Shown: positions 18,930-58,640 of the stretch, piece by piece | Position numbering within the stretch: the stretch's first letter is position 1 | Layout: every line of letters starts with the position of its first letter | Assembly: GCF_037042905.1 (NCBI RefSeq) | Contig: NC_087256.1 | Coordinates: forward strand, 4,278,001-4,342,000 | Length of the DNA stretch: 64,000 nucleotides | Reading direction: 5' to 3' | Source: Lytechinus pictus | Lineage: Eukaryota | Made by a program: the position numbers and the translations under genes | Notes under the pieces: generated by a model | The model's input: the letters and a program-made list of their open reading frames with translations, nothing else | Database searches by the model: none | Told to the model about the DNA's origin: nothing

Positions 18930-20948
18930 ACGAGAGAGAAAGGGGGAATGGATGAAATAGAGTAGTGAATGGGAGATGGAGAGGGGGGGGGGGGGATAGA
19001 GGGAGGTAGAGAGAAAAGGTGATGAGAAGGGGAACACAAAAGTTATATTTTCTTTTGGAGGAAATAGAGTAATGAATATGGGAGAGGGGGGATGGATAGA
19101 GGATAGAAAGAGGGAGGGGGTAGAGAAGTTAAAAGAGGTATAGAGAAAAGGTGACGAGAAGGGGAACACAAAAGTTATATTTTCTAATGGAGGAAATAGA
19201 GTAATGAATGGGGGAGAGGGGGGATGGATAGGGAAGGAGAGAAAGAGGGAGGGGGTAGAGAAGTTGAAAGAGGTATAGAGAAAAGGGGATGAGAAGGGGA
19301 ACACAAAATTATATTTTCTTTTTGAGGAAATAGAGTAATGAATAGGGGAGAGGGGGGATGGATAGAGGAGAGAAAGAGGGAGGGGGTAGAGAAGTTGAAA
19401 GAGGTATAGAGAAAAGGGGATGAGAAGGGGAACACAAAATTATATTTTCTTTTGGAGGAAATAGAGTAATGAATAGGGGAGAGGGGGGGTGGATAGAGGA
19501 GAGAAAGAGGGAGGGGGTAGAGAAGTTGAAAGAGGTATAGAGAAAAGGGGATGAGAAGGGGAACACAAAATTATATTTTCTTTTGGAGGAAATAGAGTAA
19601 TGAATAGGGGAGAGGGGGGATGGATAGAGGAGAGAAAGAGGGAGGGGGTAGAGAAGTTGAAAGAGGTATAGAGAAAAGGGGATGAGAAGGGGAACACAAA
19701 ATTATATTTTCTTTTGGAGGAAATAGAGTAATGAATAGGGGAGAGGGGGGATGGATAGAGGAGAGAAAGAGGGAGGGGGTAGAGAAGTTGAAAGAGGTAT
19801 AGAGAAAAGGGGATGAGAAGGGGAACACAAAATTATATTTTCTTTTGGAGGAAATAGAGTAATGAATAGGGGAGAGGGGGGATGGATAGAGGAGAGAAAG
19901 AGGGAGGGGATAGAGAAGTTGAAAGAGGTATAGAGAAAAGGGGATGAGAAGGGGAACACAAAATTATATTTTCTTTTGGAGGAAATAGAGTAATGAATAG
20001 GGGAGAGGGGGGATGGATAGAGGAGAGAAAGAGGGAGGGGGTAGAGAAGTTGAAAGAGGTATAGAGAAAAGGGGATGAGAAGGGGAACACAAAATTATAT
20101 TTTCTTTTGGAGGAAATAGAGTAATGAATAGGGGAGAGGGGGGATGGATAGAGGAGAGAAAGAGGGAGGGGGTAGAGAAGTTGAAAGAGGTATAGAGAAA
20201 AGGGGATGAGAAGGGGAACACAAAATTATATTTTCTTTTGGAGGAAATAGAGTAATGAATAGGGGAGAGGGGGGATGGATAGAGGAGAGAAAGAGGGAGG
20301 GGGTAGAGAAGTTGAAAGAGGTATAGAGAAAAGGGGATGAGAAGGGGAACACAAAATTATATTTTCTTTTTGAGGAAATAGAGTAATGAATAGGGGAGAG
20401 GGGGGATGGATAGAGGAGAGAAAGAGGGAGGGGGTAGAGAAGTTGAAAGAGGTATAGAGAAAAGGGGATGAGAAGGGGAACACAAAATTATATTTTCTTT
20501 TGGAGGAAATAGAGTAATGAATAGGGGAGAGGGGGGTGGATAGAGGAGAGAAAGAGGGAGGGGGTAGAGAAGTTGAAAGAGGTATAGAGAAAAGGGGATG
20601 AGAAGGGGAACACAAAATTATATTTTCTTTTGGAGGAAATAGAGTAATGAATAGGGGAGAGGGGGGATGGATAGAGGAGAGAAAGAGGGAGGGGGTAGAG
20701 AAGTTGAAAGAGGTATAGAGAAAAGGGGATGAGAAGGGGAACACAAAATTATATTTTCTTTTGGAGGAAATAGAGTAATGAATAGGGGAGAGGGGGGATG
20801 GATAGAGGAGAGAAAGAGGGAGGGGGTAGAGAAGTTGAAAGAGGTATAGAGAAAAGGGGATGAGAAGGGGAACACAAAATTATATTTTCTTGTGGAGGAA
20901 ATAGAGTAATGAATAGGGGAGAGGGGGGATGGATAGAGGAGAGAAAGA
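18930..20948. repeat. 131-bp tandem repeat (satellite/minisatellite), ~15 copies, purine-rich + strand
   Basis: Unit GAGAAGGGGAACACAAAATTATATTTTCTTTTGGAGGAAATAGAGTAATGAATAGGGGAGAGGGGGGATGG...; repeated minus-strand ORFs are offset by 131 bp. Confidence 0.97.
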
Positions 20949-21349
20949 TGTGTTTGAAAATCATCTAAAAACACACTTTTTATTTAATGTGGGGGAGGGG
21001 CGTCAGTGTCATCATGATTATGATGTACACGTCTTTGAAGTATTGGGTACATAATAATTGGTAATATATTTTAAGATCTCATTTCCTTACCTGAAATGTG
21101 TGATTTTCATTATCTATCCTATCATATCCTTGAACCCACTCTCTCATTCCTTTTACAGTTCCTTTTGTTCTCCCCAAGTTTCGTTTCTTTTCTTAGGATC
21201 TTTATATCTCCTTGATATTGTTTTCTTTATTCCTTTTTTTTGTGGTTGCTAGTACATATTTCTCTTCTGTAGGACTATCTTCTCCCATGCTTATCTCATC
21301 TCTTCTTGATTTACGTACCACACTCATCTCATCACACTTCGATCTGAGT

Positions 21350-22658: not shown

Positions 22659-24997
22659 GTAAGAAACTGAGACTTTTAGTTTTACACATACTGTTTGAGA
22701 ATGGTAGATCTGAGAGACAATTACAGAGAAAGTGGAGGAAAATAGTACATGAATGTGCTATGTTGAATGACAATAATAGTGTTGTATTACCATTGAATTG
22801 AGCATGATCACATAAGCAGTGTTTACGTACATCATCATATACTCCACTTTCTATTCTAGGCTTACAATTTGGAGGTACATTGTATGTAGTAAATGTTCCA
22901 CATTTCATATAACACAAAAAAAATTCAAAAGTATGTTGTTAATTCTCACTATATAGGCCTAGTATTTTCAAGTTAGCACATAGGCCTAATCTAATGATTG
23001 TATTATATTTCAATAAGGTGCTATCAAGAAGATTTGTTAAAATCATTTATATGACATTTACTCCTGTCACATTACAAAAATGTTAACTGATTTAAAATGT
23101 TTTCCAAAATAGTTTTAAAAAAAGCAATTTTCTGATGTTTTTAATACTTCTACTTCTACGATACTCAGAAGGATCAATAATAAGTCAGGATGTTGTGCTT
23201 ATATATTATGTTTCTAGGGGAGCAAAAGCAGTTTAATAACATAAACTTATATTTCTTTCATTTTAATACATGAATTGCTAAATGACTATGAAAACGTTGT
23301 ATTAACCATATTGAAACCATACATTATGATTTTTTTTCATAATGTTAATAGCTGACATAGTTATGATATATACTTTTGCTCTAGCATGGTATAAGTAATG
23401 AGTTAAAAATGTGACTGTTAATTTTCAACTTGTCTAATTGGCGGGATAAAGATCTCCATGATTCAAATAAAAAGAAATACATAGGCCTATTATAGGATTT
23501 ATTCTAGTCTGCAAACTCTAAATGCACTTGGTAATATATGCTACATGTATTCTGCCTATAGTGTTAGTTGATTGAATTGTGCTCCAATGTACATGCATAT
23601 TTCATTTCTAATCTAACACATGCACTTTCCCATAGAAGCAATTCAGCAACATAGCATTGTTAATCAGCGTTTTGCTCTGTTGTAAAGAAGCGAAGCATGA
23701 AATTAGAAGTGAGTCTTTAGAAAGTCAAACCAGCTAATGTTCGAAGTGACATTGGACTAATGAATCCATTAATTTGGTCAGGATAATTTATTTATATTGA
23801 TAGTAACATAGCCTACAGTGACAGATCTAATATCTTAAAATATATAACTAAGGCCTTATCTTCTGAAAATAAAAAACATTAAAGTGATAGGATAAGATAA
23901 TTTTGATCGGTGCATATATATTTTTTTCAATTGGAGCACCGTTAAAAACCAATCAACAACAGATATAGTTATGAGTGAAGTTTTTCTTTGAAAAAGTATA
24001 AAGATGGAGCGCAGATTTCTGAAAAAGTAGAAAAGGAGAAGTAATTTATCGATGAATGGTGTGGAAGACATTAATTTTTTTTTAAAGGATCAGAAGAAAG
24101 ATAGAAAAAGAGAAGAAATATAATAAAGAAGAGGATCAAATAGAAAAAAAATATTGAACTTTTTAGAAGGAATGAGATATACATGTAGTCGATTTGACAG
24201 TCCCATAGGCTCAATACACCAACCTAGAAATGTTCTTTCCGATGAAGTTTTTTTCTTGATTCGTGTTCCTATGGGGTCCTAGAACAAATTCAGCTTGGTT
24301 GCCCAAAGTTGCCGTTTGGGCAATTTTGCTAATTTGCATAAATCCAAAATGGCCGCCAGATGCCATCTTTAAAACCTAACTTTTGAACCCCTTTCCACAA
24401 AATGATGAGTAATGACTCGTTTTAGGGGTTTAGATGTGTGAACCGATTTTTGGAATCATTTTTGCAATAAAAGGTCATCTTCAGGTCAAATCTAAGATGG
24501 CGCCAGATGCCATCTTAAAAAATTGACTTTTGATCCCCTTGCCCCAGAATGACGAGTAATACCTCTGTTTAGGGGTTTTGGGGTGTGTAGAATCCATTTC
24601 TGCTTTCTTTTTTGCAATATAATGTTATCTTCGGGTCAAATCCAATATGGCCGCCATATGACGCCATCTTGAAATATCAACTTTTGAACCCTTTGCCCCA
24701 GAATCATGAATAATAACTCTGGTATGTTCATTCAATTTATGCTGTAATTTTGCATAAAGGATAATCTTCAGATCAAATCCAATATGGCCGCCAACAGCCA
24801 TCTTGAAAAATTACCTTCCGTGGCTTACGTGTAAAGGCTAATGTAAAGGGATTTCAGTATAAGAATACTCATTTCTTTTATTAATTCTCACGTTTTTGTC
24901 CCAGAGTCATGAATAATCCCTCTTTTCCTGAGTTATTTGGTATGTTGATTCCATTTCTGTAAATAATTTTACAATATATGATCATCTCCAGGTCAAA

Positions 24998-25540
24998 ATT
25001 CAATTCAATTCAATTCAATTCAATTTATTTTCATTCTTCAACATAATACAAATAATTACATGATAAATCAATTCAATTCAAATAAAAGCATGAACAAAAT
25101 TCAACATTAAATAAATAATATACATATTCAATAAGTGATTCAAATATAAATTAACATGCATGTCAAATTTAAATCAATATAATCAATATAATTAAATATA
25201 ATTTAATCAATATAATCATATATCATGAGAAGAATGGAGGGGTCCACTGAAAAGCAAAGCTTGTAAAATGTGAACCCCTCAAAAAGTTAGGATAGAAAAA
25301 ATATTAAAATATACGTAAAGGAATACATGAAGATAACGAAAGGGGCAAAAAAAATCTTATATACAGGATTGTGAAATTCAGAGACAAAAGACAATACACG
25401 ACACAACACAACACAGGACGGTACATGAGGGTGGACAATAGTACGATGACAACTGCCTAGAATATAGAAAGAAAAATAGAGATAGGGAGAGGGATGCAAA
25501 GCTAATCTGCTGCATATATATTATGTCTACACAAAATAAT
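24998..25540 (-). mobile_element. 3' fragment of a CR1/L2-group LINE nested in the foldback element
   Basis: (TTGAA)n tail and AATAAA on the - strand, with a 3'UTR stem-loop like that of the LINE at 51 kb; interrupts a host subrepeat. Confidence 0.65.
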
Positions 25541-25962
25541 CGAACATGGCCGCTAAACGCCATAGGCCTATTAAGAAAAAATATATATTTCCCGAGACTA
25601 TCGAACCTTGAAGAAGTACTCTCCCTCATAAGGTTACTATTATGTATGGGAGCTCATGTAAGGGGATTTCAGCGAGAATGATTCATTTCTTTTAATTACT
25701 CCATTTTTAGTTCGAGGTCAAGTCACGTCTAAGATGGTCAGATGGTTGATAGATTTCGTCTTTAACCGCTTACTTTAGAATGAAACCATTCAAGGTTTGG
25801 GCTATGATTTCGGGAGTTCTAATCTTTTTTTTTTTTTTTCTGTCCAACCATACTTTTCCAGTGAAAGGACTTTAAAGTATTATTTGAATTAAAAAGTGAT
25901 TTATCCGTATTTTTTCAAAAAAATAGTTAACTAATGAACTTTCTTTATAATTATCATTGGAC

Positions 25963-27016
25963 TTTTCCTCCTGACAAGAGCCATTGACTTGGTCAGCAGG
26001 AGTGCACTATTTAGCCTCCTGCAGAAGATAGGCTCCCCCAAGACTGTTCTATGGTCAGGATGGATCTCATTCGTGAAATGTTGTACGGAAACGATGTCGC
26101 CCCTGCCTCTCAAGAGGTGAGAGTACAAGACCTAGTCATACATAACAGCTACCTGTCCTGTGCATGTAAGGAGTTTGGATCACCCATCAGCCTGTGAGAC
26201 AGAAATCCTGATCGACTCAAGACACTGAATGTCCTCCAGATATCTATATCAATAGCACGCACTCGTCTGTTCGTGGTGGACTCCTCACCTACCTTGGATC
26301 GAGTACATACATGTAGCTCCCTTTCACTGGACAAGTATATAAGCACCGGGATAGTAAAATCTGTCATTCATGGCCAAGCTCCTGTACGGAAGTAAGTCCT
26401 TGAAAACGTACGCCGACCGAGAAAAGTGGCCAAACACCTTCCATGTCAGCTGCCTCGGACGTATCATGCACATTAAATGGCAGGACAAAGTGAAAAATAC
26501 AGACGCCCTTCAGCGTAAGTGCTGGTATCCTCAGCTTATTCTCGCTCCTTAGTCAAAGGCACCTTAAGTGGTTGGGGCATGTTCGCCGCATGAAACCTTG
26601 GCGAATCCCTTCTTGGATTCGCCAAGGTAAGGTGAGCTGTGTGATTGGTCTCACCCCCATCGGTAGATCACACCTCCGTTATAGAGACACCTGCAAATGT
26701 GACATAAAACTTGCCGGCATAGACAAGAACACTTGTGAAGATGTAGATGATAGTCGCCATTCTATGGAGAGCTACTAAGTACAAGGGTCAAGACGTCAGA
26801 AAATAACCGAAATGCTAAATTGGCAGACCAAAGACCTAGGAGGAAGGCTAGGGCAGCATCTCTATCTAAACCTGTCTCAGCGCCATCCTCCTTCATCTCT
26901 ACAAATTTGCTATAGATACTGCCACTCTAGAGTGGAGCTCTACAGTCACTCTCGAAATTGTAAGACCTACATGTAGCGCTACACCATCGTCTTTTAAGGG
27001 GAACTGATGCCTACCA
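25963..27016 (+). mobile_element. 5'-truncated, degenerate RTE-clade LINE
   Basis: Decayed RTE C-terminus (LLYGS..TY, RIMHIKWQDKVKN, WLGHVRRM, LRYRDTCKCDIK); flanked by 10-bp TSD ATCATTGGAC (25953-25962 / 27017-27026). Confidence 0.8.
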
Positions 27017-28215
27017 ATCATTGGACACATTGATTTAGAAAAGAATATTGAGAAAACACTTTCAAATTCAAATAAGACTCTAAAGCCTCTTTAGTACAAA
27101 AGTATGGATGGACATTAAAAACAAATAAAAATGCACGCAAAATGGATCATAGCCCAAACATAAAGAGGATTCATTCTAAGGTGAGCAGTTAATGTCGAAA
27201 ACTGACATCTCAGATGTGACTTCCCCTTATACTAAAAATTGAGAATTAATACAAGAAATGGGTATTCTTACTGAAATCCCTTTACATTAGCTCTTACACG
27301 CATAAGCCTCGGAAAGTAATTTTTTCAAGATCGCGGTTGGCGGCCATCTTGGATTTGATCTGAAGATTATCCTTTTAGGCAAAATTACAGCATGAATTGA
27401 AAAAACATACCAAATGACTCATGAATAGAGTTATTATTCAGGATTCTGAGGCAAAGGGTTAAATAATTGATTTTTCAAGATGGCGTCATATGGCGGCCAT
27501 CTTGGATTTGACCTGAAGATGACATTATATAGCAAAATAGACAGCATAAATGGATTCTACACACCCCAAAACCCCTAAACAAAGGTATTACTCATCATTC
27601 TGGGGAAAGGGGTTCAACTTTAATTTTTCAAGATGGCATCTGGCGGCCATCTTGGATTTGACCTGAAGATGACCTTATATTCCAAAAATGATTCCAGAAA
27701 TCGGTTCTACACATCTCTAAACCCCTAAAACGAGTCATTACTCATCATTTTGTGGAAAGGGGTTCACATGTTAGATTTTCAAGATGGCATCTGGCGGCCA
27801 TTTTGGATTTATGCAAATTAGCAAAATTGCCCAAACGGCAACTTTGGGCAACCAAGCTGAATTTGTTCTAGGACCCCATAGGAACATGAATCAAGAAAAA
27901 AACTTCATCGGAAAGAACATTTCTAGATTCGGAAAATGACAAATCGACTAATGTATGGTCAGAAGAAAAAGTAGAAATAGAGAGAGAAAATTAAATGAAA
28001 GAATGGAAAAGAAGGATCATAGGCTACCAAAGGGTCAAAGTAAAAGAAGAGAAGATGAAGAAGATTGATCTGTCACATCCAATTAAGCACCATATAATTC
28101 TTCGACTGTTCAATCCGGGTCTGTTTTTCTTAATATTGTGCAGAAATGAGCAAATGCAAGAAAAATAATGATCATAAATTTACTCCTAATTCTACATTTG
28201 TTTTGTCCTGATCAG

Positions 28216-48071: not shown

Positions 48072-48710
48072 CTGTTAACAGTTCACAAACAAACACAAAG
48101 AAAATAGAAATACCCACATGACATCAGGTTCTCTGTAATAAGGGTTGCCTTTAATCCATTCTTATGTGACCATATCATAATTATTTTATTCAGACAAAAA
48201 CTTGTATTCATCCAATACAGTTACAAGGATATAAGACTAATCAAACAGCTCAAGGAACAAACTGCTCAAATGTACATGTACATTACATTAATCTTAATCA
48301 ACAACATTCAACTTGGTGAATAATGTACATATGAGCAAACTTTGGTTGTTGACCAAGCATCTATATTCAACATTATTTCTCACAAGAAAGGTTGCAAGTA
48401 CACTTGAATCATAAAAAAGATGCTTGCAAATGCTTTATACCATATACATGTATGACCTAAAGACAAACTTTGAACTTGGCATTTGATTTTTGAAACCACT
48501 ATCACACTGAGGTACTCCCAATTCAACTACATGTACATGTATGTGCAAATTTTTGTTATTTAAAGTGACAGTCATGAAATGATAAGTCACAAGAGAGAAA
48601 CCCCTTCATCTTTGGTGGGCACGACAAAAAATACAAATGTGTAACATGAATGAATTTAAAATTTGATTTGCATTCTCTATAAATGTATAAATATCAAATG
48701 GTCAAATTAC

Positions 48711-50543
48711 CTCAAAGAGGAGTCTCAGCTGTGGCAGTCCTTTGAGATCGCAGCTTTTCAGTTCCTCAACAGTCCTCTGTAAATGTGTTTTTAAGGTCCA
48801 AGAGTCTGCCATTCTGAAGCTTAATTCCAAGAGCTTCCCAAGTAGAGGAAGGAGATAACTCACATGGCAAGTACTTTCTGGACATCGACAGCTAAGGACT
48901 GTTGACCTGAATGTAGACGCACTGCACCCAGGTGAAGGTTCCAATTCAGAAACTACCTTATGGATCCACCTGACAACTTCTTGACAATTGTTCCTACAAG
49001 TGTCCGGATTGAGGATTGAGAAGGCATAGGACTTCTTCAGTGTGTTCCACCTTGCCTTGCGCTCTAGATCATCCTCAAGAATGGACACAAGGTAGTGTAG
49101 AGACAGCAGGTCTATGTGCCAACTATTGACAGCTAAAACACTATCATTTAGATCACCGTTTGATGGTACACTGACTAGCGCCGTTGCGACAGTTCTGACG
49201 AGATCCCACTCAATGGGAAAATCCCTTGCATTTGGATGATGTAGCTGCTGTATCTTTTTGAGGCACCTGTACACTATCAAAGCTTCTGCATTACTTTTGC
49301 CCTTTCTTAAGGTCTCATGGAAGAGTTCTTGAAGAAGATGCGGTGGTGGTTTATGGTTTATTGTTGTGAACTTTTCTATCAAGTTTAGTGCTGCCTGCGT
49401 GAATTCCTCCTCATGACAGGCATTTACTGCATTGCATTTATCATCACTAAAGGGCTTAGTTCTCTTATGCATGTGTTTATATTTTCTTACAGAAAGATCA
49501 CTGGCTTTTGTATCCTCTGGAGCTAACAAGAAAGATCCCCAGCAGGCATCTGTTACTTGTTCCTCATTTTCAGCCACTTCTCCTGAAGAATGTCTTGATC
49601 GATCATCATCTGAAACGGATAAAGGTTGTACTGGTAGCGGTGCTCTTTCAGGGGAAGGTACATGTTCTCTCTTGACAGGTCTTTGCTCAGTTGCTTCATG
49701 ACTCTCCACAGTCTGTGTATTCAAATACAGCTCATTGGCATTGCTGGATGTCGGCACAGTTGTGTATAAAGGTACCACTTCCTCAAGTATCGGATACTCC
49801 GGTAAGTCGCTGGAATCTGATTGTTCAGCATCGTCATCACCATCATCTTGAATTCTAAAATGATCTGAGCCATTGCTCACTGACACTCCATGGGTAAGAT
49901 TTGCTTGTTCACAAACGATCGCATCATCACAGTCAATCTCTGAATCTGAATAGTGTTCATGACCAGCATGATGATCAGACAAATCACTCATAGAGTCAAC
50001 GGGGATAGGCTGGAGATCTTTCTGCAAACTTGCATTATTTTGATCCAAATCAGAATCTAAACAAATCACATCAGAGTCGCTCGAGTTGAGCTTCGGCGAC
50101 CTCCTAGTTCTCTCATTTGTACCATCATTGTCTCCAGAGCTGTCGGATATGGTGTAAATCTCCTCATTTTGGGGAGAACTACATGCAGACGTTGTCCTCC
50201 TTTCCTTGAGAGTAGGCACATCTGTAAACTCATCATCTGAAATTGCCTCATAATCCGATGACAGTGACATTTTCTTTTTCCGCTTGACTGGAATACTGTC
50301 CTCTCTGTTGATGAGGGAAGGATGAATCAGTGCACTTATGTTGAAATTCACATTGACAGGAATCAAGCCACTACTCATGAGGCTGTTCCTACTTGCCATC
50401 AATGCCATGTCACTTGTTGTTGAGTGTTGATGAGTCTTTTTGTAAGTTCTCATGCTCTCCTGATCAAGGGATTTCATTCTCTGGATGGGTCTCTTATGCC
50501 GGTGCCTACGTTTCTTTGATGACCTGAAGGTCACAGCTCCCTC
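48711..50543 (-). CDS. SIMC1: SUMO-interacting motif-containing protein 1 (SIMC1/C5orf25, Nse5-like) orthologue, large internal exon (611 codons); 5' exon(s) not found in window
   Basis: ttccag| acceptor and |gtaatt donor. Acidic disordered region with SIM-like motifs (EIYTISDS, DVICLDSD), then EEEF..ALNLIEKF..PP..VYRCLKKIQQLHHPNA..LHYLVSILEDD..NCQEVVRWI, which resembles the SIMC1 C-terminal domain (recognised from memory, not searched). Confidence 0.82.
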
Positions 50544-51317
50544 CTGGAAATACAAGATAAAAAGAAAATGAACTACAGGTTTATTGAAGGGAGACAAAAG
50601 GCATTCATCACCAAATAGATGATAATTTTTCCTTGATGCTTATTGGTATAATATTACAGTCCCAAGTTTTCTGTTTTCTCAAATAAAAACTCTTCTGTGT
50701 TTTAGTATTAAGATTCTGTGTTTCTCAGTCACATCGTCCAAAACCGGTTTGACGGGCAGCGTTTTCACTGATCAATGCATCATGGTTTTGTAATATTGGA
50801 TTTGCTTTGATTTTCATTGTATTTTTCAGAATTCAATTTTGATGGGCCTGAAACATTGTGTTTTCCAGGAAATTCTATTTTGATTTTTCCTGTTTTTGGT
50901 ATCACAGAACTGGGGACTCTAATATTATACAAATGATGCATCCCCGAATTCATTACAGTCTACAAGCACCTGCACTCAACTACAGAATAGATAATTGCAA
51001 TGCTGACCTCAAAGTGCACAACAATGCATGTGGGTAATTTCCTTGAAAAGATGTTCAAGTTCAAGTTCATTTATTAAAACCAATAAACAATATAAAATCA
51101 AATACAAAACATATATCATAAGATGGTTAGGACCAAAATGAAGCCGAAGCTTGTGAATATTGGCCCTTTACATAAAATATATAAAATACATTATGAAAAC
51201 AATGTCAACAAATTAAATTAACAAGTAATCGATTAAGAAATACTTCCATACATACACAGCCTAGAAACACCCATACACACACCCACACACTCACAGACAC
51301 ACATACAAACAAGGATC

Positions 51318-53054
51318 CTATATTTCATTAAGTAATTGTTTTTTACAGAGTTTTTTAAATCTAGATAAAGTAGTACTTTCCTGGATTGAGTTATGTAAAT
51401 TATTCCAATATTTGATACCATTGTAGGAAAGAGATATTAATGACGAGGTTAAACGTAATTTGGGAAGATGAAATTGATTTTTCTGGCGAGTTGAATAGGA
51501 ATGGACATTATAATTATGAATGAATATATTGCAAAATTTTAGAGGAAACATTTTGTTTTTGATTAGATACATAAATATTAATGAATTGAGAATAGTCATT
51601 TTCTGAATAGGCAAAATATTTAGTTCTTTAAATAAAGGGGTAGAGCTCGAGTTAATATTAGATTTAGTAATAACTCTTACTGATTTCTTTTGTAAAATAT
51701 GTAATTTGCCCAGGTGGGATGTATATGTATTCCCCCAGATATGATTACAATAATTGATATATGGATGAACAATAGCATAATAAATAATTTTCAACACATT
51801 ACAAGGTAGTACAAATTTTAATTTTCGTAGAATACCAGCACCCCTAGCTATAGATTTAGATATTACAGATATATGTGGAGTCCAATCAAGATATTCATTA
51901 ATTATAACACCTAAAAATTTTACATCATGTAATTGTGAGATTGGAACACCATCAATTAATAATTGAGGTAGTGTTTGTGGTACCCTTCTCTTTCTTGTTC
52001 TAAATAATAGATAATTAGTCTTATTTAGATTCAAGGCTAGTTTGTTAGCCTTGAACCATAAGGACACATTTGAGATTTCCCTGTTTGCTGATGAGTAAAG
52101 TGTATGTAAATTTTTTTGACTAATCGTTGCTACAGTGTCGTCAGCAAACAGGGAAAATTTGAAATAAACAGAAGAATGGATGATATCATTTATGTAAACA
52201 AGAAAGAGAAGGGGACCAAGAACAGAGCCTTGAGGAATTCTGTGCTCTATATTCTTTACAGATGATTTTACACCATCGACCACCACATATTGTTTTCTAT
52301 TGTTTAGGTAACTTGCAAACCAGTTATATGCTATTCCTCTGATTCCATAATGTTCAAGTTTTTTTAACAAGATGTGATGGTCGATGGTGTCAAAGGCCTT
52401 TGATAAGTCCATGAAAAATCCAATAGAGTAATTAGATTTTTCCATTTCCTGTTGAATACAATGAGATAAATTGAAAATAGCTAAATCAGTTGAAAATTGC
52501 TTACGAAAGCCAAATTGTTCATCTATTAATATATCATTACTTTGCAAAAATTTATAAAGACGACAATAAATTACTTTTTCAATAATCTTTGAAAAAAAAG
52601 GAAGAATTGCAATGGGTCGATAATTTGACATATCACTTGAATCTCCTTTCTTATAAATGGGTACTATTTTAGAAAGTTTGATTTTATCAGGCACTTCTCC
52701 ACAACATAATGATCTATTGATAATATAACATTGAGGTTCTGCAATATAGTGAATAGAAGACTTAACAACCCTTGATGATATCTCATCTGGCCCTGTGGAC
52801 TTAGATAGTCGAATATTTGAAGTAATTCTAATGATTTCATATACGGATGTAGGATTCATAAAAAGTGAATTAAGTGTTCTATTCACTGGTAAATAATCAT
52901 AAAAAGACTTATCTGTATGAATGCTTTCCGCAATGTTTTTTCCGATCGATAAGAAATAATTATTGAATTCTTCAATGATATCTTTTTTGGAATGTAATTT
53001 CATATTTCCATTATACATAACTGAGGGAAGTTTTTTATGTTTAGTGTTTCCTAA
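51318..53054 (-). pseudogene. LINE ORF2 reverse transcriptase and C-terminal domain
   Basis: Motifs NYRPIAIL, QFGFRK, DLSKAFDTIDH, PQGSVLGPLLF, LFADD, KFLGV and YWNNL. Confidence 0.92.
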
Positions 53055-53644
53055 TGTAACAGGTCAAAATGAACTGTTTAATGGAAATTCATATATTTTC
53101 ATAACTCTTAATCATTTGTCTGTAAGTGATAGACACCTTCACAGGAAGTGCACAGGAAGTAGTAGAAAGTAGAAATATTTAACAATCTTCATGCTTTTGA
53201 GGAAGTATGATTCACACTCTTTCTGGGTAAGAGTGATGCTGAATGGTCTTTGGGTCAAAACATCACATTCCAGAGCTATGAGCTTGCATGACGTAGATAA
53301 TTATGGTCAAGGCTTAGCATCTGTGAATGGAGAGTGATAACTGCATAAAAAGGAGAGAGGATTTTGCTCCAATTCACTCCTGCACTGCACCCCATTCATG
53401 GGGCAGGCAGAGAGGCTTCTTCATTTTCGGGTCAGAATTAAAGGTATTTGACATGACATTCGTGTAGCGGGTGAGGCTCTCACCAGAGGAAATATGGTCC
53501 TCTAGGCCAGATTGTCAGGGTTTTTTCTATCTTGTGTTCTTGTACTTGGAATTTTGTATGTAACGATCCATCGATATTAAACGAACCGAAACACAAGGAA
53601 TGGTGTCGTGTGTCATCTTTCTACATCAGTTTCCGCGTGTTACA
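53055..53644 (+). repeat. 5' LTR (590 bp), intron-less form
   Basis: Identical to 55302-55690 + 56163-56238 + 56600-56725 except for 2 substitutions and one T in a homopolymer. Confidence 0.93.
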
Positions 53645-53646
53645 AG

Positions 53647-53666
53647 TGGCGTAGTCAGCAGGATCG
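53647..53666 (+). promoter_or_regulatory. Primer-binding site complementary to tRNA-Ser 3' end
   Basis: TGGCGTAGTCAGCAGGAT lies 2 nt after the 5' LTR and is the reverse complement of the eukaryotic tRNA-Ser(AGA/TGA-type) 3' end ATCCTGCCGACTACG-CCA with 1 mismatch. Confidence 0.8.
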
Positions 53667-55288
53667 ATGTTCATCGTTGGATACAACCAAGTTCAAACCC
53701 TGGCAATCTGAGGAGCTCATCCGTCTCATCTGTTGGACATCTTGAATTTTGTAAATATGAACGTAGCTTTAAGTTTAAGATGTATTGTGTGTGTGCATTG
53801 TGTGAATGCTGTAGCCGAAATGTAGTTTGTTTTAAAATAATATGAGGCTACAATGTATTTGATAGGGATTAATACTAATGGAAAGGTATTTTATGAGATA
53901 CCCTGTAAGAGTTTTCAGATCAAAAAGCTTTGGTCAAGGGAACACTGAGCACTGTTCAAGGTTCATTTTTGTGTTGTCATGGTAATGCTGTGTTTTGGAA
54001 CAGTCCATGCCCCCTTTCTTATGTAATTTTGGCTGGTTGGATGGGAACCACACATTGGGGTGTTGGAAGCTAGAGACACCAGTATTTTATATGTTGATAG
54101 GAGGGAGTACAGTATGTGCAGATTAAGCTCTGGGTTTGGCAAACATGATTAACTTGTGAATAGTTGAGGCGTTTCTTTGTCTGATACGTGAAGTTTGTTA
54201 ACTTTTTAAGTTTAGTTTTGGGTCTTGATTAATATTCGGTTTAATAAGTTATGGCGTGAATTAATGTTAATTGTTTGATCCAGAATGTGTATTTAATAGT
54301 TTTAGGGGCTACTTTTGAAAAAGTAGGGGAGCCCACGTCTTGATGAAAGTGGTTTACTTTTATGTTTATGTGTGTTATAGGTTATTATATTGTAATATGC
54401 TGATCTTTCTGATTTGTAACTGGGATTTGGCTAGGAGTACTGCTAGGTTTAGTCATGATAAAGTATCAATGTAAATTTCGAGAACCTCAATCTGAGACCG
54501 GGATTGCATTAGAGGGATACTGGAGTGACTATTTGGGCAGTAAAGTTTTTCTCTTTACCTTTGTTTTTCTGTTTACCTTCGAGGCCGGAAAGGACACATT
54601 GGTAGTTGAGTGAATTAGTCAAAAGTTATAAGATTTTTCAGTATGTTATATTGATGAACTATTGTTCCATTGGAAATTGCTAAGATTTGGGGAAACATCT
54701 GGTAATTGTTGTTATTTGTTTATTGCCTTGTAATTTTGCCTTACAGTTTGAATCAGCTGTAAGTATAAGTAGGTATATTTTGGGAGTTTTAAGGATGACA
54801 TTATAGTGATCTATTTACTGGTTATAAAGTATATAATGGTTTGTTATTCATTGAAGTACATGGATTGTGAAGGTTAATGTCGGTAACTAAACATTGGTTG
54901 GTATAAACTTTGGAGCTGTTAGGATCGGTTAGGAAGCACTTGGAATGTTAATGCTAGAAGCCTCAACATGAGACCAGTATTACATAATAAGGAGTGTAGT
55001 TGAAAACTGAAACAGTTAAGTTTTTGCACTAGATATGTCTTCTGTGTTTATTCTCGTCATGAGACCAGAAAGTTCGTATTAGTGGTGCGGGTTCGCCAAT
55101 ACCGAGTTATTGCTGAGATTTTCATATTCTGTATCGGGTGATTACTGGCTTTATATCTTAATGTCATGATTAATTGTAAATTGATTTGTTTTGTAACTGG
55201 GAACAAGCATCACCGGGTAGTGTTATTTAAAGTAGGACTTTAATTTGTAATAATTTTGGTATAGTGAGTGCCGGGACGTCACTCAATT

Positions 55289-55301
55289 AAGTAGGGGAGT
55301 A
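55289..55301 (+). promoter_or_regulatory. Polypurine tract of LTR element
   Basis: AAGTAGGGGAGTA immediately before the 3' LTR TGT. Confidence 0.8.
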
Positions 55302-56725
55302 TGTAACAGGTCAAAATGAACTGTTTAATGGAAATTCATATATTTTCATAACTCTTAATCATTTGTCTGTAAGTGATAGACGCCTTCACAGGAAGTGCAC
55401 AGGAAGTAGTAGAAAGTAGAAATATTTAACAATCTTCATGCTTTTGAGGAAGTATGATTCACACTCTTTCTGGGTAAGAGTGATGCTGAATGGTCTTTGG
55501 GTCAAAACATCACATTCCAGAGCTATGAGCTTGCATGACGTAGATAATTATGGTCAAGGCTTAGCATCTGTGAATGGAGAGTGATAACTGCATAAAAAGG
55601 AGAGAGGATTTTGCTCCAATTCACTCCTGCACTGCACCCCATTCATGGGGCAGGCAGAGAGGCTTCTTCATTTTCGGGTCAGAATTAAAGGTAAGAAAAT
55701 TATCTTATTTTGTCGATTCTGTTAGTTTTGAACAATAGTTTATAAAGTTGGTTCGCAATGCATTTTCTATTGTTTTAAATAATATGTTAGGTTATATTAA
55801 AGAGCTATCTTTGCTAGCATAGCATGTTATCTGTCTTATTTTAAAGGGGTTTGTAAATTAAATAATTCATTAGTTATGCATCTGTCTTCGTTACTTCAGA
55901 TTATTCTTATGTCATTTTGTTATATTTTGTATAATTACTTGTACGTATATACTTGATTGTAGTATGTAGTTATAAAACAGAATGTGTTCGGTTCTAATCT
56001 TATAGTGAAACAATTTAGTAAAATGATCTTTAGAGTGAAAGATTTTGGTTAAATTGATTTGGTTATTGAATTGTTAATTCAATGTTTCAGTTAAGTGTTT
56101 TCAGAGTAAAGGGTCACGATGATTACTTACTACGTGTAATAATTGTTACTTTCCTTTTAAAGGTATTTGACATGACATTCGTGTAGCGGGTGAGGCTCTC
56201 ACCAGAGGAAATATGGTCCTCTAGGCCAGATTGTCAGGGTGAGTGGTTATCATTCATTAACCACTGTATTTCAATGTTAATTTGTTGGCATATTCTAATT
56301 GTTGTTTGGTAAATTTCACTTGATGGATGTATTTCATTTATTTGTTGGAAGAGTTATCCATAACGATGGAGGAACTGAATTTGTGATTAGATGAGTTGAA
56401 TTCAGGCAATATTGATTAGGTTTTAATGAATGGGTATAGACAACATGTTTATCATTTATTATTACGAGTCTACTTGACGTCATATTGATGAATGTTTTGT
56501 CTTGGAGTCACAGACAAATATGTGTATATTTCTATTTTGTGCATTTTTCAAACATATCATAATTCTATTTAATTGTTTTGTTCTTGTTGGTTTTTGCAGG
56601 TTTTTTTCTATCTTGTGTTCTTGTACTTGGAATTTTGTATGTAACGATCCATCGATATTAAACGAACCGAAACACAAGGAATGGTGTCGTGTGTCATCTT
56701 TCTACATCAGTGTCCGCGTGTTACA
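55302..56725 (+). repeat. 3' LTR (1424 bp) containing two GT-AG introns (55691-56162, 56239-56599)
   Basis: AAG|GTAAGA...TTCCTTTTAAAG|GT and AGG|GTGAGT...TTTTTGCAG|G; the flanks match the 5' LTR. Confidence 0.92.
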
Positions 56726-58237
56726 CTAAAATACGGTTAATTTCACCCCAGACCTTTTTGGTATCAGTTTTGATTATAGAAAAGAGGGATGAATAATAAT
56801 CTGATTTTGCTATACGAAGTAATTGTACTAAGTTATTTTTATATTGTTTGTATTTTCTTTCATTTGCATTTGATGGAGTTTTCAGATATTTTTTCCAAAG
56901 TCTTTGCTTCTTGTTAATAGATTGTAATAAAGTTGTTGTTATCCAGGGTTTTTTACGAATAAATTTTGTATTTGGTTTTGATTTTATTATGGGAAAGCAT
57001 TCATTATAAAGTGAATAAAAGATTTGCAAAAATTTATTATAACAAATATTTACATCATCAGCATAATACATTAAAGACCAGTCAACCTCTTGTAATTTAG
57101 ATTTAAACTTTGATAGTTGATTATTATTAGTTAATCGTCTAAATGTACATGAGATGTTATTTAAAGATTTTAATTTGTAATTTTTCTTCAGACAAAAAAC
57201 TGGAAAATGATCTGATATATCAGCAATAAGCAACCCAGAATCAAAACTACTATCCAAGCAATTGCAAAAAATATTATCAATTAAGGTTGCACAAGTAGGA
57301 GTAATTCTTGAAGGTTTCGAAATCAATGGATATATTAAATTAAAAGAAAACATTGATTCTAAAAAATCATTTGTTTTTTCGTGTGAATCTATGTTTAATA
57401 AATTTATATTAAAGTCACCATTATGAAAATATCAGAATTCTGATTATTTATTTTTTCTAGTAAACTGTTTAATTTATCTAGGAATACGTCAATGTTTGAA
57501 CCTGGGACTCTATAAATACATCCTATAATAATTCTCTTTTTTTCGTAAGTCTGGAGCTCAATGAATAATGCTTGAAATTCAGACGTATTGTTTGAAATGT
57601 CAGACCTTATTATGTAATCAAATTTATTGTCTATATAAATCCCAACTCCACCACCTCTTTTACTTTCCCTATTAATCTGAACAAAATTGTATCCCTCAAT
57701 ATGGTACATGTTACTATTTTTCTTTTCACTGAGCCATGTTTCTGTTATACCTATTGCAGTAAATATTCTCCCAGAAGAATTTAAAAGCGTATGAATATCA
57801 TCAAAATTTTTGGGCAAACTTCGTGCATTGAGGTGGATAAGACTTAGGGAATCGTCGTTTGGGATTTCTTGTAACTCGTCAGTAAAGAAATATTTGCAAT
57901 GAGTTGGTTTATAAAAATTACCCCCAGTTTGGATGTCACAAAATATATTATCATTATCAAAGATGTCATCAATATCATTTAAACAAAAAGGATTAATTTT
58001 CATATGTTTTAATCTTTCCATATTGACGCCCTGGTTTAAGGAGAAAAAACTTAATAAGTTTAATTTAAAATCATCGTCATCCTCACAATGGTTAAAAGGA
58101 AATATATTGATACATTGAGTACATAAAGAGTTTGAAATAGGATCAGTGCACCTAAAAGAACAACCACATATACCACACACACACTGCATAATCACTAAAC
58201 ACTTCCAAAATGGCAATTGAATATAACATACACTCAC
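56726..58237 (-). pseudogene. LINE ORF2 N-terminal part: Cys-rich leader + apurinic-like endonuclease
   Basis: Motifs HLNARSL, GITETWL, RGGGVGIY, CIYR.P, GDFN (broken by a 1-nt frameshift near 57418), TLIDNIF and ISDHFPVF. Confidence 0.88.
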
Positions 58238-58640
58238 ACACCATCAAGATAATTTCTACCAAAATAATCAAGGGTGGAGAAAAAGGATTGAAGGTAAAAG
58301 TATATGTACATATAGGTTACAAGTCCTGGGGTAAAATGTTCAAAGATTTCAGCGTCCAGTTCACATAACTATGCTTTGTCAAAGGATTATACTGAAGTTC
58401 TCAAATATCCATCAAAATGGAGTTTACATTTTCATATTTCTAAAGATGCTGATCGCTTATGACAAATTTTGCATTTCAAACAAGTCAATTATTGCACAAG
58501 GATATCCTACAATCACAATACATACGTTCCTTTTTTCTTTTAAAAAAGAAGTGATCAAATGCTGCACAGAAAGGTCATGGCATCATATTGATGAACAATG
58601 ATACAATGTCATGTACTGAGGCATTCAGTATCATAATGAT

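Follow-up and report, generated by a model that had tools for sequence, protein, structure and literature searches.

Evidence for introns inside the long terminal repeats of a Ty3/gypsy family and its autonomous relatives in Lytechinus pictus

The usual assumption about long terminal repeats (LTRs) is that they are intron-free and identical at insertion. Several described systems come close to the arrangement reported here. Maize LTR retrotransposons produce spliced, LTR-contained transcripts composed of three exons (bioRxiv 10.64898/2026.05.08.723830). In foamy virus the major splice donor is positioned 5′ of the LTR poly(A) signal, and U1 suppresses polyadenylation in the 5′ LTR (PMC3694450). 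Ogre and EVADE use introns to generate subgenomic RNA, and artificial-intron reporters have been built into Ty elements (PMC12786077). The Barthez lineage consists of Ty3/gypsy elements with a PNMA-type Gag; the paper on it calls the progenitors intronless (PMC3670739).

The locus described here lies in a 64,000-nucleotide stretch of Lytechinus pictus DNA (NC_087256.1, positions 4,278,001–4,342,000; ‘the window’). An initial annotation of this stretch had proposed an LTR organized like a three-exon gene, with both introns in the R region. Our main reading, which we hold at a probability of about 0.6, is that the LTR contains two introns that likely lie in R, are likely needed for full-length RNA and are repeatedly lost by new copies.

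Structure of the element and its LTR introns

The segment 55302–56725 is the 3′ LTR of a non-autonomous Ty3/gypsy element that spans 3,671 bp of the plus strand (53055–56725), has TG...CA LTR ends and is flanked by a matched 4-bp duplication, CTAA (Table 1). The element cuts one LINE frame cleanly, indicating a single insertion. It has the composition of a non-autonomous LTR retrotransposon: LTRs, a target duplication, a tRNA primer site and a polypurine tract, with no gag or pol and with several dispersed copies, seven of them with two LTRs. No ORF of 45 or more residues is common to six internal regions of the family, and the internal region gave zero blastn or tblastx matches to the autonomous loci described below, and neither its DNA nor its translated sequence ties it directly to a mobiliser. 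The primer site is A/G-variable, even among sister copies. Both variants match genomic tRNA-Ser(AGA) genes, and the variation is as expected if the site is recopied from the primer tRNA. Autonomous families A and B share this primer site, and family A also shares nine bases at the LTR start. Similarity ahead of the polypurine tract reaches z scores of 4.4, 2.9 and 5.2 with families A, B and F, respectively; leader similarity is not significant.

Table 1. Coordinates of the element, its LTR introns and its insertion site (window positions)
Feature	Position	Strand	Details
Left target-site duplication	53051–53054	+	CTAA
5′ LTR	53055–53644	+	590 bp, TG...CA; both introns exactly missing, joints 53443/53444 and 53519/53520
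Internal region	53645–55301	+	1657 bp, without conserved ORF or gag/pol similarity
Primer-binding site	53647–53664	+	18 nt, complementary to 3′ end of genomic tRNA-Ser(AGA) plus CCA
Candidate leader splice donor	53751–53756	+	GTAAAT, 3′ of primer site; weak
Polypurine tract	55289–55301	+	
3′ LTR	55302–56725	+	1424 bp, TG...CA; retains both introns
Predicted U3	55302–55622	+	ETS-type cores, CRE-like and TATA-like words; boundary predicted
Initiator-like word	55620–55625	+	TTCACT; predicted start near 55623
Intron 1	55691–56162	+	472 nt, GT–AG, AAG/GTAAGA ... AAG
Exon 2	56163–56238	+	76 nt; one family element skips it in both LTRs
Intron 2	56239–56599	+	361 nt, GT–AG, AGG/GTGAGT ... CAG
Last exon	56600–56725	+	T-rich start, ATTAAA 56657–56662, GT-rich ~56682–56695, predicted short U5
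Right target-site duplication	56726–56729	+	CTAA
LINE-type element	51318–58243	−	LTR insertion splits one reading frame; RT frame 53063–51318, upstream frames 58243–57404 and 57431–56721

Two other classifications were rejected. A Penelope-like pseudo-LTR is ruled out by the tRNA primer site, the polypurine tract, the TG...CA ends and the 4-bp duplication, and the flanking reverse transcriptase (RT), a candidate sign of such an element, is part of the interrupted LINE. Self-priming at a splice junction, proposed for BEL/Pao elements, was discarded because the primer site is a full match to tRNA-Ser. The tRNA-Ser 3′ end has 21 clustered matches at G000 C20:318633–372533, which may mark a tRNA array; ARAGORN gave no output on one 401-nt piece of this cluster.

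The surroundings contain other features. A large host-gene exon occupies 48702–50545 on the minus strand, with RNA reads spliced at both sides; a feature search gave it a likeness of 0.93–0.94 to SIMC1-type proteins, a weak recognition. Both the LINE and the LTR element seem to lie in the upstream intron of this gene, the latter in antisense orientation to it. A tandem array at 18969–21105 is built from a 131-bp unit, with most copies 99% alike and a strong G skew. A foldback-like element at 24221–27929 has terminal inverted repeats that are long (220 nt at 96%) and themselves repetitive, with subunits of ~150 bp.

The two LTRs of the element, expected to be identical at insertion, now differ by both introns. 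The 5′ LTR equals the 3′ LTR minus these blocks, with 588 of 590 aligned bases matching; outside the introns, the twins differ by two substitutions and one T-run difference. Deletions that read GT..AG are rare in the 3′ LTR, numbering 5 of 952 possible deletions of 472 nt and 6 of 1063 of 361 nt. Given this rarity and a 5′ LTR without exactly those blocks, the introns are not attributable to chance, and the sequence evidence supports both as real spliceosomal introns in a three-exon LTR, much as first proposed. They show the GT–AG ends, pyrimidine tract and precise removal that define U2 introns.

The predicted U3 contains words that we take to be ETS, CRE, TATA and initiator (Inr) elements from their consensus sequences. 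The ETS-type tandem ACAGGAAGTGCACAGGAAGT lies at 55388–55407 and is followed by a third core at 55447–55453, the CRE-like TGACGTAG lies at 55536–55543 and the TATA-like CATAAAAA at 55591–55598. Among 1000 dinucleotide shuffles of 55302–55621, three ETS-type cores, two of which form an 11-bp tandem pair in the LTR, were reached once. The CRE half-site was reached in 97 shuffles and the TATA-like word in 102. The CRE-like and TATA-like words are within chance, and the promoter motifs are weaker evidence than the introns.

The promoter and poly(A) words listed in the initial annotation were all recovered at the positions assigned to them, and its spacings hold: TTCACT, placed about 30 nt past the TATA-like box, lies 31 nt from it, and donor 1, placed about 70 nt past the initiator, begins 68 nt from the initiator A, at 55691. 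The ATTAAA and the downstream GT-rich stretch are likewise present in the last exon. Among 31 family LTRs, TTCACT is found in all, as is a poly(A) hexamer (30 ATTAAA, one AATAAA). The LTR at 55302–56725 contains no true AATAAA, and further ATTAAA words occur at 55684 (polymorphic), 55796 and 55857. The expected shortening of R from ~1 kb to ~230 nt agrees arithmetically with the predicted boundaries (~1063 nt unspliced, 230 nt spliced). There is little behind the further idea that splicing serves to remove intronic poly(A) signals.

Spliced LTR copies and RNA reads

Genome searches gave at least 31 alignable LTRs of the non-autonomous family, from at least 24 insertions; seven truncated or interrupted copies (L046, L047, L051, L053, L058, L059 and L060) are left out of the set. 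Twenty-two of the LTRs contain both introns, 8 of the 31 are spliced and one has an ordinary deletion, and spliced LTRs occur in 7 of the 24 insertions. Both introns are missing from the 5′ LTR at 53055–53644 and from three solo LTRs, one of which is old and too decayed at the intron 2 joint for an exact check. One solo LTR lacks intron 1 only and another intron 2 only, and in both LTRs of one element exon 1 is joined to exon 3. These spliced copies are partial, full and alternative splicing products fixed in DNA. Splice-core columns are variable at 1 of 16 positions versus 179 of 783 intron columns, a trend that is not significant. The family is also present at ~5% divergence in organism B (runs X5 and X8), including the joint between polypurine tract and LTR and the start of intron 2.

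Autonomous gypsy families were collected through the primer site and an RT search. Five families have GT–AG-precise spliced LTR copies: C, D, E and J, with three exons, and B, with one spliced span. In all five, the last intron ends 40–75 nt 5′ of the poly(A) hexamer, and the exon that follows mostly opens with G/T-rich sequence. Family A has matching donor and acceptor words, with no spliced copy in six matches; families G, H and L were scanned for splice words only. In the RT tree, families A, B, C, D, E, F and J group together as a single clade (SH-aLRT 93, not starred), in which RT identity to family A is only 46–65%. The intron-bearing LTR is a trait of this clade. This architecture and the pattern of loss across the non-autonomous family, both absent from the initial annotation, form the strongest evidence. 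The order of pol domains is RT–RNase H–integrase, and the Pfam PNMA Gag cut-off is passed by A, C, E and F, with D falling below it.

Not every short LTR qualifies as spliced. The short 5′ LTRs of family F and one family D copy were rejected because their ends are not GT–AG, and both LTRs of one family C element carry a deletion that is not a splice product. Family J (L176–L177 = G000 C21, L175, L178 and L093) includes near-identical insertions that are unspliced, fully spliced and exon-skipped, and one insertion in this family is a tandem with three LTRs.

Intron loss seems to recur and not to spread. In an exon-only tree of the non-autonomous family, the 8 spliced rows need 7 changes, and the sole pair consists of the twins of one element. 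The spliced label changes 8 times for the 9 spliced rows of family C (of 24) and 5 times for the 5 of family D (of 12). Shuffled labels were as low in changes in 298, 389 and 500 of 500 trials for the non-autonomous family, C and D, respectively, so that the spliced copies cluster no better than shuffles; starred branches force only 1, 2 and 3 changes. The scatter of spliced copies over the tree tips suggests that loss recurs and that source lineages keep their introns, and the reading of many independent losses rests also on the four distinct loss patterns. Against this reading, the majority of copies in any family leave no descendants and recombination obscures trees of this kind, so that singleton spliced tips are expected anyway.

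Raw RNA reads were drawn from runs X19, X20 and X21, about 6 in 100 of each having been read. No spliced joints, starts or ends, and no 230-nt LTR-only RNA, were found in the 54, 45 and 31 reads obtained, nearly all of which are antisense. The strand was calibrated on the minus-strand host exon, which shows that a first mate on the plus strand represents minus-strand RNA in X20; X19 and X21 were assumed to be alike. As antisense read-through, these reads carry no information about the promoter of the element itself. Among the contig pieces listed, intron sequence is present in X1, X5, X8 and X15, runs whose RNA status is guessed or unrecorded. In X1 the element reaches a depth of ~190–560 compared with 19 for the host exon, a figure that sums all copies in a run of guessed RNA status. 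Three antisense X20 reads abut exon 2 (56163) with leader-like letters, weakly suggesting a copy in which the leader donor at 53751 is joined to exon 2; none of 36 matches in the assembly is a genomic copy with this junction.

Placement of the introns and a proposed mechanism

Their position 5′ of the poly(A) signal places the introns outside U5. The choice between R and U3 is informed by a family B element (G000 C1; L067:3965–4450 and L068:169–2056) with a spliced 5′ LTR and an unspliced 3′ LTR. In the standard scheme, U3 is copied once for both LTRs and the LTRs come out identical (PMC6894440). The family B twins are identical in U3 and exon 1 (395/395), and in the last exon they differ at 5 of 8 variable columns. 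The last exon of the 5′ LTR equals that of the C2 copies, and that of the 3′ LTR is nearest C18. The leader of this element is also nearest C2, with 17 differences in 500 nt compared with 29 and 26. A splice junction linked to the leader haplotype, together with a U3 common to both twins, fits an intron in R and not in U3. This gives indirect support to the original placement: the introns likely lie in R, and the mismatched twins likely derive from two co-packaged RNAs.

The twins of 53055–56725 are each other's nearest neighbours, with 2 differences in 571 columns and one private allele in common, and are too alike to reveal two templates. Twin pairs mismatched by splicing number 2 of ~38 (pairs inferred from search coordinates, as lower bounds). 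Both are spliced in the 5′ LTR, and two pairs are too few to establish a 5′ bias. In the family B 3′ LTR, a full-length first jump and an early one are not distinguished by the intron haplotype.

These features suggest how the introns might be used. The last 3′ splice site of a transcript is coupled to polyadenylation. In the 5′ LTR, U1 at the donors would hold off the last-exon poly(A) site, a role with a precedent in foamy virus (PMC3694450), and unspliced RNA would then read through the primer site and be packaged as the genome. Joining to the last exon by splicing would activate the poly(A) site and yield an LTR-only RNA of ~230 nt. RNAs that are spliced in R and yet read through would give rise to intron-less LTRs, which would be poor parents. 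In mismatched twins, an unspliced RNA would supply the 3′ LTR by the strong-stop route, and a second, co-packaged RNA spliced at its 5′ end would supply the R–U5 of the 5′ LTR; a single copying of U3 would serve both. That the introns matter to the element is argued mainly from their frequent one-way loss combined with their retention across 46–65% RT identity.

A third product may exist in the autonomous relatives. In A, B, C, D and F the leader before gag contains 10–18 upstream ATGs and ends in a pyrimidine-rich AG ahead of the gag ATG; the shorter leaders of G, H, I, L and M have 0–1 upstream ATGs. Upstream-ATG-rich leaders with an acceptor-like site before gag suggest a spliced gag message: joining an LTR donor to the pre-gag acceptor would give a translatable RNA free of upstream AUGs. 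Family E counts against this idea, having introns yet only one upstream ATG. Acceptor-like sites directly 5′ of the gag ATG are seen at L063:4442–4482 and in the leaders of L069, L075, L079 and L083. The wider proposal, a clade-wide LTR intron switch among packaged genome, short RNA and gag message, with intron-less daughters as dead ends and twins able to differ at birth, is tentative, and as a whole we consider it somewhat doubtful.

The mismatched twins could instead have arisen after insertion, through gene conversion of the 5′ LTR by recombination with a cDNA made from spliced RNA, the classic route of intron loss. Such an event would account for precise loss in one LTR with the target duplication preserved, and the spliced LTR at 53055–53644 does carry its own element's alleles. 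We nevertheless think this origin rather unlikely, because both mismatched elements are very young (588/590 and 395/395) and because the last exon of the family B 5′ LTR is in phase with the leader past the primer site, a region outside strong-stop cDNA.

The introns might be real and lie in R without a needed function, being passively inherited because mostly unspliced RNA is packaged or because the strong-stop jump occurs early, in the last exon. Elements with spliced LTRs and intact frames exist: spliced copies in C, D and E retain long open frames with hardly altered leaders, which counts against needed introns, and donor-like GT words are present in these leaders themselves. The introns of different families cannot be aligned, splice-site conservation within the family is not significant, and contigs of X15 and X1 (RNA status unrecorded or guessed) carry the introns at depths like those of the rest of the element. 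Passive inheritance is nonetheless unlikely in our judgement, since loss is frequent and one-way (7 of 24 insertions; 9 of 24 and 5 of 12 rows in C and D) and the last intron stays in an unchanged position ahead of the poly(A) signal in families only 46–65% identical in RT.

If the true start lay in the last exon, the introns would belong to U3 and splicing would involve only the 3′ copy in the RNA. No start was located in the reads and the TATA-like word is within chance (102/1000 shuffles), which leaves room for this placement. It is improbable, however, since a U3 copied once should not leave twins with identical U3 differing in U3 introns, and only ~57 nt of last exon would precede the poly(A) signal. 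An assembly error or ordinary deletion in the short LTR is scarcely credible: non-splice deletions do happen in these LTRs, but both joints fall on GT–AG and recur at other loci, and the insertion is bordered by a matched duplication and by LINE sequence that stays in frame.

Comparison with known systems

The reading of needed, recurrently lost introns in R has several consequences. Natural LTR introns would act like the intron reporters of yeast Ty elements, recording the copying of spliced RNA, the RNA end behind each LTR and the spread of intron-less daughters. If twins can differ at birth, dating of insertions by LTR divergence would be biased, and LTR finders split or miss elements whose twins are spliced and unspliced. 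The intron pattern also offers a testable answer to how elements with a long R avoid termination in the 5′ LTR. More speculatively, the 5′ UTR introns of PNMA-type domesticated genes, read as new gains in PMC3670739, may have precedents in progenitor elements.

No account of intron-less genomic LTR copies or of splice-mismatched twins in animals was found in the literature searched, which mostly excluded subscription papers and did not include Repbase. The present analysis contributes four patterns of loss in a non-autonomous family, a second pair of mismatched twins, trees in which spliced copies are scattered, and a link between haplotypes that favours R and two templates.

The autonomous families A, C, E and F resemble the Barthez lineage in their PNMA-type Gag. 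A difference is that the progenitors are described as intronless in the paper on that lineage. Use of host splicing is shared with Ogre, EVADE and Ty, as is the principle that intron loss marks an RNA intermediate. The natural introns of Ogre and EVADE are internal and the Ty reporters are engineered, whereas the L. pictus introns are natural and lie in the LTR. Foamy virus shares a donor within the LTR, ahead of the poly(A) site. The available description of that virus covers only a donor, and L. pictus has two whole, losable introns, acceptors included, inside the repeat.

The likeness to maize lies in a short middle exon between two long introns in the LTR, in short LTR-only non-coding RNAs and in a link to young elements. 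The maize case comes from RNA evidence in a plant and that of L. pictus from DNA evidence in an animal, with spliced insertions, repeated loss and unlike twins; intron-less genomic LTRs are not reported in the part of the maize account available. The three-exon spliced transcripts of maize LTRs provide a precedent for the short LTR RNA proposed here.
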